A DNA stretch of 59,627 nt, filler included, from Dugesia japonica (GCA_001938525.1; 4 parts of 4 records of this genome joined end to end with filler, not necessarily neighbours in it); one strand, 5' to 3'; counted from the first letter of the whole stretch, positions 17,189 through 22,920 are shown. Notes: generated by a model not told the origin, from the letters alone. Numbers and translations: made by a program.

Positions 17189-17648
17189 AAGGGTTAAATT
17201 TATTAACATAATAAATGTTAGGGTGAAACACCGGCACACAAAATAAAGATTAACAAAGACCTAAATAGCAATCAAAAGCGTCAGTAAATACCAGAGGCTT
17301 CAGATGCCAATTAATCAAAATTAATTTTGAAAAGAATTTTATCAATAATTATTCAAAGAAAAATAATGAAGAAGATCAGAAGAAATACCGAAATATTAAG
17401 AAAATATTAATAAATGTTGGGGTTCTACCTGAGTTGGGGAAAGTGACTAGGGAAAAACAGTCCTCAGGGGAACCCTTTCAAGAATTTAATCCTACCGTCC
17501 CTATGGTAGGCTTTCAGTNNNNNNNNNNNNNNNNNNNNNNNNNNNNNNNNNNNNNNNNNNNNNNNNNNNNNNNNNNNTTTTTCCCTATTATTATTTAAGA
17601 GAATTAAGCAATTTCTTACAATTAAACTATTTATTATTAATAAAACAT

Positions 17649-17999
17649 TTACATCAGATCCAGTGTGTCCGGATCTAGCCATTGATCAGGGGAGGTGACG
17701 AGGAAATTAAAAGTAGCAATGTCATCATAGTCATCCCACTGCGTCGTATTTGGGTTTTCGAGTTGACGGGATAGATCGGAAATATACTGTTTGAGGAAAT
17801 CTATCTTACGCTGTAGGAGAAGTTTATTTTCCGCTTCCAAAGCTTTAGTTGCTAAGTCAGATTGTTTCTTGATAACAAGATCGAGTTTTTTAATTAATCG
17901 ATCGCGTTGTTCTAGGTGTTTTAGAAACGCCTTATCAGCTTTTCTCTTCAAATGACGTTCGATGAGGAGGCGGCGTAAGATACGATGACATCTCCGGAT
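17649..17999 (-). CDS. LTR ORF-A: small coiled-coil protein with acidic Trp-containing tail (5' part in gap)
   Basis: Open frame IRRCHRILRRLLIERHLKRK...KIDFLKQYISD...QWLDPDTLDLM; homolog at 22921-23269. Confidence 0.75.
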   Translation of the reverse strand: MRRCHRILRRLLIERHLKRKADKAFLKHLEQRDRLIKKLDLVIKKQSDLATKALEAENKLLLQRKIDFLKQYISDLSRQLENPNTTQWDDYDDIATFNFLVTSPDQWLDPDTLDLM

Positions 18000-18157
18000 N
18001 NNNNNNNNNNNNNNNNNNNNNNNNNNNNNNNTACAAGAATATTAAGTGAACATAAGATAGGTCAAAATTCAGCCAATTCCATTATTGATTACAAATTTAA
18101 ATAAAATCCAAATCAATCAAGTAACAAGAAAAATTGATTATTTATATTTTACAGAAA

Positions 18158-18526
18158 TCAATGTCGAGGATTATTCTTAGTCTGTGTGCCCTTGTCTATC
18201 ATAAGGGGCTCAAGATAAGACTTATCCTTTAGCAACAAAATGTCTTTAACCAGTTTATTTCCTCGGTCATGGCTGGACCGGATAATCTCTGCGAATGATT
18301 CAACTTGGGCTTTCCAGGCTCGTTCCTGCTCTTGAACAAGTCTCAATTCCTCGCGAAGACGGGTACATTTATTTTTGTACCGTTTTACTTTCGCGTTCGC
18401 AGTTGCCCCATCGGCCTCCCAACGCCGTTTGGCCAAACGATACAGACTCCAAGTCATCTCTATATCTTCACTGTCTTCACGGATTTTCTTAGTTGGCGCG
18501 GGTGGACGATTTAGTGATGAATTCAC
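18158..18526 (-). CDS. LTR ORF-B: coiled-coil protein with basic N-terminal motif and C-terminal DKGTQT
   Basis: Intact 122-codon, relatively GC-rich frame in AT-rich flanks; preceded by acceptor-like TTTATTATCACATAG. Confidence 0.65.
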   Translation of the reverse strand: MNSSLNRPPAPTKKIREDSEDIEMTWSLYRLAKRRWEADGATANAKVKRYKNKCTRLREELRLVQEQERAWKAQVESFAEIIRSSHDRGNKLVKDILLLKDKSYLEPLMIDKGTQTKNNPRH

Positions 18527-18671
18527 TATGTGATAATAAAGTATGATTAATTCTCATTAAATATTTGGACAAATGTTTATTAAGGTCACAAAGAATTTAT
18601 TATAATGAATTAAAAGAAGACAACAAAAATTGAATGTCAAAATTCCCATAAAGAAAACACCAAGGAAAAGA

Positions 18672-19058
18672 CTACAAGTCCTCCCTAGACATATTTTCGT
18701 CATTTCTGTAATTCAGGGCATTCCGCTCACTCCATAAATTATTTTGGATGAATGACGATAGCTTAGAGTACGTGGGTAGTTGGGTTGTGGTGAGGCCAAC
18801 TACCGTGGGGCTTTCCGACCAAACCCTTTCAATACGCGGGGTGGTGGTAGACTCAGATGCGGGTGGATGGCTTAATCGATCCCTCCTTGGGCCACGCCAA
18901 TGATAGTAGGCGGCCCGCTCAGTCTTGTCCCAGTGGCGATCATATTCGACTTGTTCCGGAGACACATTGGAGCGATCTACCAACACTCCCGCATCTTGGT
19001 TATATGGATTTCTAAACTTCTTAAATGTAGTCAATCCAGATCGGGTATCCAAAGTTAC
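18672..19058 (-). CDS. LTR ORF-C: unknown protein (5' end in gap)
   Basis: Intact frame of at least 126 codons, GC-rich island between AT-rich spacers. Confidence 0.6.
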   Translation of the reverse strand, partial: VTLDTRSGLTTFKKFRNPYNQDAGVLVDRSNVSPEQVEYDRHWDKTERAAYYHWRGPRRDRLSHPPASESTTTPRIERVWSESPTVVGLTTTQLPTYSKLSSFIQNNLWSERNALNYRNDENMSREDL

Positions 19059-19412: not shown

Positions 19413-20904
19413 TGCTGAAACAGAAAATATTACCAAAGATTTCAGTGAAATTACATAATTGCTTATAGCGGGGGGAATAAAGACAACTTACTGAAAAATT
19501 CTTATTGTCATTGACCATGTTTAGTGATTATAAATATTGAGCGGTTAGACGTATTAACTTCATATTTTAACAGCAATTCTTAATATGTGCGTAGGTTTAA
19601 GTGAAACTGGTTAAGTTGAACATCACAGTAGTAATAATGCTGATGTTACTCCAAAAATTTGATGGACCTATCACTACGAATAAACCCAAAAAAATAGCAT
19701 CAATGCGAATTGTACCTGGTTAATATTGAGACGCTTATGGCAGGATACGGGTGAATAATTTATCTAGTCATAATAATCATATTAGGGATATTAATATCGC
19801 CCTTAGTGATTGAGATTTTAATAATAAAAGTATCGATAATCATTCTATTGACGGGGTTACCTAAANNNNNNNNNNNNNNNNNNNNNNNNNNNNNNNNNNN
19901 NNNNNNNNNNNNNNNNNNNGAACTAATAAGATTAGTGATGACACCGATAATAACGGTATGGTTATATAATCATTTCAAGACTAATAAATTGCAAGTAATG
20001 ATGATCCGCATACGATTAGTAGTAAGGAAAAGCTCACCGTTTTAATGAGTGACACTGTTGCTAATTTATAGTAAAGGTAAAGGACTCTATTTAATTAATA
20101 TAAATTAATTCTAATAGCTAACGCTTATAATTGCAGTTTGGTAAAATTTATCAATTTTTCACTAATTAAATTTCGCACAATCACTGCGTTGCCCTTGGTT
20201 TCCGTCAAGGCCGTCATCGTGGGCAACATATTTTTTCTATTACATTACGAGTTGGTGTGTTGGTTTACTCCTCTCACCATATCAAAAATTACTTCCAGGT
20301 GTGTTTGTCTCAATTATCTGACAAATTATTTAGTAGTGATTTAGGAAGATGCTATAACAGAATTGGGGGATTTTGATGGTAAATTATTTCTTCCGTTCAA
20401 ATGCTGGTTTTTGGAAATTGTATCTCAGATTGGTGATGGATTTATTCGCATTCATGAACGGTAACCTTCGAGTATTATGATATTTTTCTTTTTTATGATG
20501 TCTAAATTGTAATTTTAATATAATTGTGATGTTTTGCATTTGTTAACGTTAATTAAAGTTAGACATTTATCTTATCTATAAGTAATGACAGAATATAGTT
20601 TTCCACTAATTAGAATTTATGATCTGGCAACTGCGTTATTTACTTAACTTCTACTGGTACAACCAATTCATTTTGGATTGCAAGTAATTAATCACTACTT
20701 TTATTTTCCTTGGTTGGGAATATTTTTTTTTAATTATGTATTAGCGATTTGTTTTGTTTTTGTAAGAGCAAAATATGGTTAAACGTTTTAACATTTATTG
20801 GTAGCTTTTTATAATTATAAATAATTTCCAAAACTGTGGATTAATTACATAGAACAAACCCACTATAACCGTTGTGGAGTTAACATTTGTCTTATTGTTT
20901 TTTT

Positions 20905-21243
20905 GGTAAAAGAAAATATAGTTAGAAATATCGATATTATTTGATAGAGTGTTTAATGTTAAGTAAGTTACGAAATTAAAGATGAATTAAATTCATTATA
21001 GAGTTAATATCTATTTTAGTTTTTTGTAAAAGAAAATATAATTAGAAGCATCGATATTATTCGATGAAAAATTTTTTTAATGTTAAATAAGATACGAAAT
21101 TAAAGATTAATTAAATTCATTATAGAGTTAATATCTATTTTAGTTTTTGTAAAAGAAAATATAATTAGAAGCATCGATATTATTCGATAAAAAAAATTTT
21201 TAATGTTAAATGAGATACGTAATTAAAGATTAATTAAATTCAT
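20905..21243. repeat. about 120-bp tandem repeat x3 inside the LTR
   Basis: GTAAAAGAAAATATA...TCGATATTATT...AATTAAATTCAT recurs three times. Confidence 0.85.
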
Positions 21244-21637
21244 AGCATATATTTCATATAACCATTATGTAACTATCATTTAACATCAATAAAAAAGAAA
21301 TAATTACTTCTAAATATAATTCACAAAAATAGATCGGCAAACGAGGGTTGATCAGCGAGAGGGTTTCTGCAACGGAGGCTTGATAATTTTATCTAGAGTT
21401 TTGTTTCCGTAGGCAACCAGTTTACTTCGATATCGATTGGAGTTTTTCTTTTTCTTTTAAAGTTCTAGAAATGAAGTCGATGAATGAGCTTAATATTTGC
21501 TTTGACCTTACCAGTTGAAGTTATACAACTCGTAGTCGATATTGTTCGATAAGTTTTGGAGTACAAGTTCCTTAAAATAATTCGATTAAGATTAATTTTT
21601 GGATTTTGTGTGGTTTTTTCATCTAAAATTGGAGCTT

Positions 21638-21646
21638 CTTTTATAG
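21638..21646 (-). promoter_or_regulatory. putative LTR TATA box (CTATAAAAG)
   Basis: About 600 bp inside the 5' end of the solo LTR; the sister LTR has GGTATAAAAG at a similar depth (about 690 bp). Confidence 0.5.
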
Positions 21647-22920
21647 GATTTTCTTGACACCCCAACTAGGTTTAGATTTGTTGGTATTTTTAGACCAGCT
21701 CATTTCTAATTTTATTGGTGCTAGCACCGCTTTTCTGCAATTTTCTGTAAATTTCAGTGCCATGATTGGCAACTATTTTTAGAGCAACACCTGACATCGG
21801 TGGCTTTGTCTTATTTTTATTTTCTGGCTGCTTATTGGCTAGATTTTAGAATCCTTATCATACCCCTCTGGAAGGTGGTATGTTTTTCCTTTTTTGGATT
21901 CTAATTGCACCGATTTATTCTCTGTGCAGTTTTTCTTGTTTGAACTTCCTCCAACGTTTGGGACCGGAGTTATCAGCAAAAAATATATTTTTAACTAATT
22001 TTGTTTCGTTTTTATTTTAAATTAATTAATTTGTTTGCATTAATTAATTATTTTTCATATTATTTTTTTTGGTTGTTTCTTTTTAATTATTAAAATTTTC
22101 TTAATTATTGATCATAAGTAGCTTCCATTTTCTCTACACCTTCTTCATTTTAATTTCGTTGCTTTTTATTGTTGCTTTTCGTGCTTTCTTTCCTCCCTTG
22201 ATTTATTCTATACTTTAATGGGTGTTTCACCCCAACATAAATAATAATGAAATAGATGGTTGGCCACGAAAAATTAAGAAATAAATCTAAATGTTATCAA
22301 ATTAATTAAAATATTGCTAACATTAAAATAGAAAATAAGAAAAAATTAATTAACTTTCTAGAAAAATAAAAATTAATTTATTCAAACTTTGGAAAATGTG
22401 GATAACTTTTTATCGAATCATCAGAAGTTGTCGGGGAAAAAAAATTTCAGCAGATAATGACTTGGGGGAACAGTTTTCGGTAATTAAAAATCATTACCAT
22501 ATTTTGAAGAGTTGGAAAAAAGACTTCAAAGTTTTGACCAACGACAAGGCAAGAAAACAAGAAAAAATAAAGACCAGAAAATCAGCAGGTGTCCGAAAAT
22601 AGGCACCAATGAAGACAAAGCAGAACTAGAATAAAATCTTTAAAAAAACAGACAAAGAGTCAATGAGGAAGTTTACAGCAGATTTAAAAATACGAGACTA
22701 ATAAGAGAAAAGTCGAGTTGTCTAAAAAATGGTATAAAAGGTCCTTATTATATGGTATAAAAAATATGGCTGGGGAAAAGACAGCCCTCAGTATATCCTG
22801 TGAAGAATTCAACCTAAAGTCCCTTATTTATCTTTAGATCATTACTTTATTTGCACTATTTGTTCTCTTTATATTTTATTTATATCTAGTGAATAACTTA
22901 ATTATTTCTGTTTATTGCCA

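Follow-up and report, generated by a model that had tools for sequence, protein, structure and literature searches.

A 4.8 kb probable solo long terminal repeat of a giant Ty3/gypsy family in Dugesia japonica, with a possible built-in cassette of small genes

The window analyzed here is the whole 59,627-nucleotide stretch of Dugesia japonica DNA (GCA_001938525.1; four parts joined with filler), which has a GC content of about 28% and is rich in mobile-element debris. At positions 17415–22237, on the minus strand, it contains a 4,823-bp element that is likely a solo long terminal repeat (LTR) of a giant, Burro-like Ty3/gypsy family and that holds four open reading frames (ORFs), D, C, B, and A, in a row downstream of a promoter. 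The element has TG...CA termini that form an 8-bp inverted repeat: TGTTGGGG starts at 17415, and the last base of CCCCAACA is 22237. They are flanked by the two copies of a 4-bp target-site duplication (TSD), TAAA, at 17411–17414 and 22238–22241 (plus strand). Both the termini and the TSD had been reported in a first-pass annotation, and they are present. The TAAA match on both flanks has a chance probability of about 1–2.4% for 4 bp at the local composition, and CCCCAACA occurs once within the window. No primer-binding site (PBS) or polypurine tract (PPT) was found at the edges of the unit, gag-pol is likewise not attached, and no direct terminal repeat was found inside it.

The same window contains a decayed giant gypsy element, and the LTR end on its PBS side is homologous to the U5 (unique 5′) end of the 4.8 kb unit, 17415–17517 on the minus strand. 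In a DNA comparison within the window, 17415–17517 and 59274–59380 are 79% identical over 109 columns (E 1e-18). Because it is the PBS-adjacent LTR end of the giant to which the left end corresponds, the unit is read along the minus strand, with its U3 (unique 3′) end at 22237 and its U5 end at 17415. The homology on which the first-pass annotation relied is therefore real, and it is restricted to the last ~105 bp of U5. The unit was considered as the missing 3′ LTR of the giant itself, a candidate ruled out by the lack of a PPT, by the unit's own matching TSD, and by an identity of only 79%. Inverted termini with a 4-bp TSD are also compatible with a cut-and-paste or other non-LTR mobile unit carrying passenger ORFs; Ginger-like elements, for instance, have TGT ends and a 4-bp TSD. 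We find such an origin hardly credible, as the inverted repeat is just 8 bp long, 105 bp at one end are similar to a PBS-adjacent LTR end, an LTR-type promoter block makes up the opposite end, and neither a transposase nor an integrase was found in the Pfam scan.

The unit was inserted once, and its target was an older sister LTR that lies antiparallel to it on the plus strand. The sister LTR begins at 17217–17414 with TGTTAGGGTGAAACACC, which is 16/17 like the U3 start of the solo element, and its U3 continues at 22242–22765, with a CCAAT box at 22606 and TATAAAA at 22733. Over 22242–22765, 305 of 471 aligned bases are identical to the solo U3 with the TATA boxes in register (score 128 versus a maximum of 93 in 200 shuffles); the first 200 bp of the sister LTR are not significantly similar beyond the start (score 71 versus a shuffle maximum of 78). 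TAAA also precedes the sister LTR, a hint of target preference. To follow related copies, one DNA run (as contigs) and three RNA runs were aligned to 16800–22800, the RNA runs being read in part (about 6, 25, and 25 in 100). Contig depth was summed at 88% likeness; it is not a copy number, and its bins are not independent. Three contigs of the DNA run, at a depth of 10–15, pass directly from one flank to the other, with the element missing between them. Because the linking letters differ from those of the window, these empty sites are paralogous, in sister repeats, and not an orthologous allele. Taken together, the termini, the TSD, the lack of PBS and PPT, the U5 match, the empty sites, and the U3 homolog in a second LTR make the solo LTR proposed earlier a likely one; the pairing of such LTRs around gag-pol is a reconstruction.

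Directly past the sister TATA, at 22766–22825 (plus strand), is an inverted copy of a 57-bp motif of U5 (scores 51 and 67 versus shuffle maxima of 28 and 29), over which sister contigs reach a depth of about 2,000. A template-switch accident and a 5′ leader complementary to U5 are candidate explanations. The U5 motif was also considered as a hammerhead, but its core words, judged by eye, are wrongly spaced for one, and the idea was abandoned. Rfam gave 0 matches at E 1 over 17100–23600, and the motif gave 0 matches in metagenome contigs.

In transcriptional order, the element opens with a U3 promoter block (21624–22237, minus strand) containing CCAAT boxes at 21838, 21769, and 21718 and a TATAAAA box beginning at 21645, one base from the position given by the first-pass annotation. 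This block is very widely common to sister copies. It is followed by a non-coding, subfamily-specific middle (19413–21623, minus strand; contig depth 105–481), which is likely an intron together with a leader; its putative splice sites are two donor-like words, GTAAGG at 21511 and GTAAGT at 19491. Within it is a 123-bp tandem repeat of 2.8 copies (20900–21243, strand not assigned). Next come the four ORFs, all on the minus strand: D (19227–19412), 61 amino acids (aa) from its own ATG, with a basic N-terminus and an acidic C-terminus; C (18672–19127), stop-free over 151 codons; B (18158–18553), 131 codons from stop to stop and 99 aa from the first ATG; and A (17649–18041), about 125 codons. A strong acceptor-like TTTCAG stands 2 nt before the ATG of ORF D, and a weaker candidate at 18526 precedes B. 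AATAAA words occur 14–91 nt past the stops of D, C, and A; the one at 17630–17635 (minus strand), 14 nt past the ORF A stop, is a candidate poly(A) signal. The only conserved TATA box lies upstream of the ORFs, and the readable part of the solo element, unlike the giant, has no TATA-like words near its U5 end. The cassette may sit in a very long R/U5, the main promoter then being the TATA box at 21645, or else in a long U3 that has an additional promoter upstream, as in the sag gene of mouse mammary tumor virus (MMTV); we see little to choose between the two.

The four frames were described earlier as intact, co-oriented, and richer in GC than the AT-rich spacers between them. Their shared strand and composition are confirmed (GC 0.34–0.58 in the ORF blocks, 0.20–0.33 in the spacers), as is their position downstream of the TATA box; intactness is not confirmed for A and C, whose 5′ parts are N-masked. 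In block shuffles, a single strand had three open stretches, each 110 codons or longer without a stop, in 0/1000 and 1/1000 cases. By single-sequence prediction, ORF A folds as one long helix of about 80 residues with an acidic-aromatic tail, and ORF C gives a low-confidence fold (predicted local distance difference test score, pLDDT, of 47). ORF B is coiled-coil-like, and its C-terminal KGTQT resembles the TQT motif bound by LC8. Protein searches with A, B, and C returned no match at E 0.01 among near-length proteins; ORF A had 0 matches in 1.84 billion protein representatives. Pfam matches of A–D were all far below the cut-offs, D being searched in Pfam only. For ORF B, the 242 pattern matches in metagenome contigs and 24 in viral contigs yielded 0 confirmed. 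Its nearest atlas neighbor, the CCDC3 coiled coil (0.92), was set aside as a generic coiled coil on low recognition, with 2/10 concordant; the best atlas score for ORF A was 0.78, and it identified no known accessory protein.

The strongest evidence for coding comes from the sister LTR. Downstream of its TATA box is ORF A′ (22942–23269, plus strand), a diverged homolog of ORF A with one frameshift between 23013 and 23033. The two proteins share 39% identity over 83 residues (E 3.5e-13). Over 101 codon pairs, the proportion of synonymous differences (pS) is 0.77, i.e., saturated, and that of nonsynonymous differences (pN) is 0.39, giving a pN/pS of 0.50 (bootstrap 0.38–0.66, with 0/2000 replicates at or above 1). 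Because protein alignment favors a purifying signal, frame-blind DNA alignments were also used; under 4/4 scorings, third-position identity (0.42–0.52) was below that of first and second positions (0.55–0.73; p 1e-4 to 0.013). The order of U3, TATA box, and then ORF A, with the same relative strand, is thus found in two LTRs that are only 65% alike. We conclude from these comparisons that ORF A is a real gene, held by purifying selection and tied to this LTR promoter.

ORFs B, C, and D are likely coding as well, judging by a set of frames beyond chance and by a higher sister-copy depth than that of the spacers. The bins over the ORFs have depths of 2k–86k with a median of 6,629 (7 bins), compared with a median of 186 in the other inner bins (13 bins, one of them high). 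The ORF B core bin is the highest among the ORFs (86k). Among the 12 of 21 indels listed, the 8 that fall inside the element all lie outside the ORFs. It could be argued that only ORF A, perhaps with B, is genuine in this solo LTR, C and D being chance frames in GC-richer regulatory DNA. The length of D is indeed within chance (706/2000 shuffles are open in some frame, 145/2000 on the minus strand), and this speaks against D as a gene. ORF C has flat GC at its three codon positions (0.48/0.48/0.50), a low-confidence fold, and a lower depth (2.1–2.4k), and B, C, and D all lack homologs. However, C stays open across 128 readable codons, as do only 31/2000 shuffles, all the frames lie on one strand, and D has its own depth peak (6,690 versus 378 and 287 in the adjoining bins) together with its acceptor-ATG context. 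We hold the reduction to ORF A, perhaps with B, to be improbable.

Contig depth along the whole element follows the same partition. It is 15k–72k over U3, falls about 170-fold to 421 just past the TATA box, and reaches 147k over U5. By this pattern, promoter, ORFs, and U5 are kept among sister subfamilies, and the remaining sequence drifts. The subfamily is young, its nearest sister contigs being 0–9 letters per 205–255 away from the element.

From this anatomy we propose, as a reasonably probable reading, that 17415–22237 is a solo LTR of a giant Ty3/gypsy family whose small accessory-gene cassette is built into the LTR itself. Being part of the LTR, the cassette would be doubled at reverse transcription, and gag-pol would have been removed by LTR–LTR recombination, leaving the solo copy. 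The CCAAT/TATA promoter would start a pre-mRNA near 21615 that crosses the cassette, and a short leader ending at the donor-like site at 21511, or also at 19491, may be spliced to an acceptor ahead of each ORF in the style of complex retroviruses. The products would be small proteins without enzymatic activity, two of which, A and B, are predicted coiled coils, and they would be of use to the element during its replication. As long as the cassette was part of active elements, it would have been under selection; the solo copy, immobile by itself, would drift neutrally and be silent in the libraries examined.

The most serious competitor of a gene-bearing LTR is a non-autonomous, internally deleted derivative. 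Its parent would have had short LTRs and ORFs in the 3′ part of the internal region, and deletions would have fused the 5′ U3, the ORFs, and the 3′ U5. Accessory ORFs are usually internal in such elements, as far as the available part of one account goes (PMC6431247). The collapse of depth past the TATA box likewise fits, as it implies a different sequence downstream of this U3 in most of the copies that have it. So does the sister LTR, which has U3 and A′ and lacks D, C, and B, and so does the giant of the window: in that element, a member of another subfamily, the place corresponding to ORF A, counted from U5, is taken by an (ATA)n tract. In addition, one contig (depth 95) joins 18564 to 19167, skipping ORF C, a weak hint of C-less cassettes given that its shorter side has only 21 letters. 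On the other side, the unit has no direct terminal repeats, so it could not be reverse-transcribed as a deleted unit, yet its middle is also multi-copy (contigs at a depth of 42–55, compared with about 7–10 for the shallowest). Two deletions would be required to remove the PBS, gag-pol, the PPT, and the 3′ U3; the order of U3 and then ORF A recurs in the 65%-identical sister; and none of the 15 of 31 joints listed links U3 straight to U5. On balance, we judge a deleted derivative to be unlikely.

The LTR-borne cassette that we prefer has further points against it, beyond the partial content of the sister LTR and the different layout of the giant. The sister LTR has no recognizable U5 end and carries the inverted U5 motif after its TATA box instead. 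A pair of such LTRs on one full-length element was not seen, no genome assembly having been searched. The 5′ parts of ORFs A and C run into N-masked stretches, with no usable ATG in the readable part; purifying selection is demonstrated for ORF A only; and the cassette has no protein homologs in the databases searched. The processing signals are equivocal: AATAAA is absent after ORF B and frequent on the same strand (17 occurrences), acceptor-like words show no excess on the coding strand (7 minus versus 9 plus), and the candidate acceptor of ORF B failed the acceptor scan. There is also next to no RNA over the ORFs, spliced or unspliced, RNA-seq being one of the checks proposed in the first-pass annotation: depths in the three runs were 0, 0–0.22, and 0, with no joints, values still compatible with silenced or rare expression. 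Finally, the private differences of this copy look neutral, as 7 of 9 in the ORFs are replacements versus 78% expected under drift, in a small sample of 40 of the 261 variants.

U5 is the only part of the element with RNA reads. The three runs placed 187 reads, nearly all as partial fits, mostly on a 60-bp U5 motif and at no more than 95% likeness. Because of these partial fits and this likeness, the reads are attributed to diverged sisters. No read pile-ups marking transcript starts or ends were seen in these runs.

These results divide the earlier proposal that each solo LTR is a self-contained promoter-plus-genes unit able to seed accessory genes genome-wide. Anatomically the unit is plausible, its U3-TATA-then-A arrangement being repeated in the sister LTR, and as a coding cassette it has selection behind A and the frame set and depth behind B, C, and D. 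Seeding holds at the level of DNA, which is multi-copy; as a function it lacks support, given the RNA depths in 3/3 libraries and the drift-like private changes.

To our knowledge, LTRs with a gene inside have been described in a few vertebrate retroviruses, one gene in each. The MMTV LTR that contains sag is about 1.3 kb long. MMTV sag is a single gene of a vertebrate retrovirus, whereas the present case would have up to four unrelated ORFs, all downstream of a conserved TATA box, in an LTR of 4.8 kb that belongs to an invertebrate Ty3/gypsy element. No sequence likeness of ORFs A–D to sag or to a known accessory protein was found in the databases searched, and expression from a spliced or LTR-initiated mRNA was not seen in the three partial RNA runs. 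The likeness lies in a protein-coding gene placed, here by our reconstruction, within the LTR and in selection, on ORF A, followed by neutral drift of the copy. In the available portion of one study, the sag of MMTV-like viruses is an LTR gene served by several promoters, including one within U3; 490 of 527 contigs of MMTV-like betaretroviruses are solo LTRs, and sag is under purifying selection before endogenization and under none after (PMC4667437). A gene-bearing solo LTR is not new in kind: sag-bearing solo LTRs are already described there.

The closest known relatives of the giant element are probably Burro/GYPSM1, giant gypsy elements of dugesiid planarians with a three-CCHC-knuckle Gag, an internal region of up to 25 kb, and a total length of over 30 kb, which together imply kilobase-scale LTRs (PMC6431247, as far as its accessible text goes). 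The same text places the accessory ORFs of Burro in or upstream of the polyprotein and does not mention LTR ORFs. Like Burro, the giant of the window encodes a Gag with three CCHC arrays and then, ahead of the protease, kilobases of additional coding DNA, with reverse transcriptase (RT) and RNase H following in one long frame; the host, too, is like the Burro hosts in being AT-rich and having Polintons. The short decayed fragments of the giant gave no Pfam match to MATH, BCL2, BIR, ankyrin, or Env, nor to SUMO-like or dUTPase domains; several extra domains of Burro are detectable only by HHpred, according to the same partial text (PMC6431247). Among plant elements, Ogre, Retrosat2, and Del have LTRs of 2–6.5 kb, frequent solo LTRs (429 solo versus 162 complete for Retrosat2), and extra ORFs of undefined function (PMC6431247, PMC3485330, PMC4029996, each in the portion available). 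Those extra ORFs are, in these portions, internal and upstream of gag-pol, the LTRs being regulatory, whereas here the ORFs would lie inside the LTR. In taeniid flatworms, ta-TRIM solo LTRs have 4-bp TSDs and start transcripts that are spliced to downstream acceptors (PMC4558846, in part). They differ in that their LTRs are short and non-coding and the genes that they drive are host genes outside the LTR, while the 4.8 kb unit has ORFs inside. We met no description of a multi-ORF cassette in a gypsy LTR in the literature searched, which did not cover the primary Burro description (Grohme et al. 2018) that may bear on it.

A selected multi-ORF LTR cassette, if true, would extend the gene organization of complex retroviruses to an invertebrate Ty3/gypsy element and would represent an unrecorded family of small proteins, with abundant solo LTRs carrying latent genes plus their promoter. 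A position of the cassette past the main start site would also imply an unusually long strong-stop DNA. LTR-borne proteins are also potential phylogenetic markers for LTRs that cannot otherwise be aligned. A bolder scheme, which we consider unlikely, would make the giant gypsy LTRs of this host modular multi-gene units. One promoter and leader would serve up to four interchangeable ORFs through alternative splicing or operon-style spliced-leader trans-splicing, the genomic RNA would carry a 4 kb R/U5 copied as strong-stop DNA, and numerous solo copies would keep promoter and genes, to be activated when silencing by PIWI-interacting RNAs lapses. In planarians, knock-down of PIWI releases transposons, BURRO1 among them, from repression (PMC8532177).

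The giant gypsy itself lies at the right-hand end of the window on the minus strand. The U5 side of its 5′ LTR (59274–59627) runs off the window and has TATA-like words 150–200 nt from the U5 end. A PBS-like tract at about 59248–59266 begins 7 nt past the LTR end, more than the usual spacing of 0–3 nt; we take it to resemble tRNA-Pro, no tRNA gene being present in the window for comparison. Its leader includes a 141-bp tandem repeat (58234–58612). In the decayed coding region (46441–57490), Gag has three CCHC arrays and is followed by about 5 kb of undefined domains, protease, RT, and RNase H. Pfam matches are to zf-CCHC (E 2.6e-7), RT (E 5e-25), and RNase H (E 2e-26), with a weak one to protease, and 95% of 47000–57500 is in minus-strand open stretches versus 71% on the plus strand. 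Two segments are protease-like, 50926–51336 and one around 50627. An integrase core was not found in the giant, and its 3′ LTR is absent from the window. Its end ORFs encode a transmembrane segment with a basic tail (47060–47569) and a coiled-coil-like protein (46444–47019), both on the minus strand.

Other mobile sequences surround these elements. Just left of the host LTR, a multi-copy repeat contains a 146-aa ORF (16769–17209, minus strand) that has no Pfam match and a few one-directional RNA reads in one library. At 15842–16264 (minus strand), 30825–33000, and 42591–43404 (minus strand) are a Tc1/IS630-type DDE_3 fragment (E 1e-13) and additional gypsy pieces, of RNase H and of the integrase zinc finger. 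Two decayed Polinton-like remnants lie on the plus strand at about 24000–28100 and 35893–41000; the second includes an A32 packaging ATPase (35893–36375, E 1e-9), which has a 55%-identical partner at 24095–24274 in the first.

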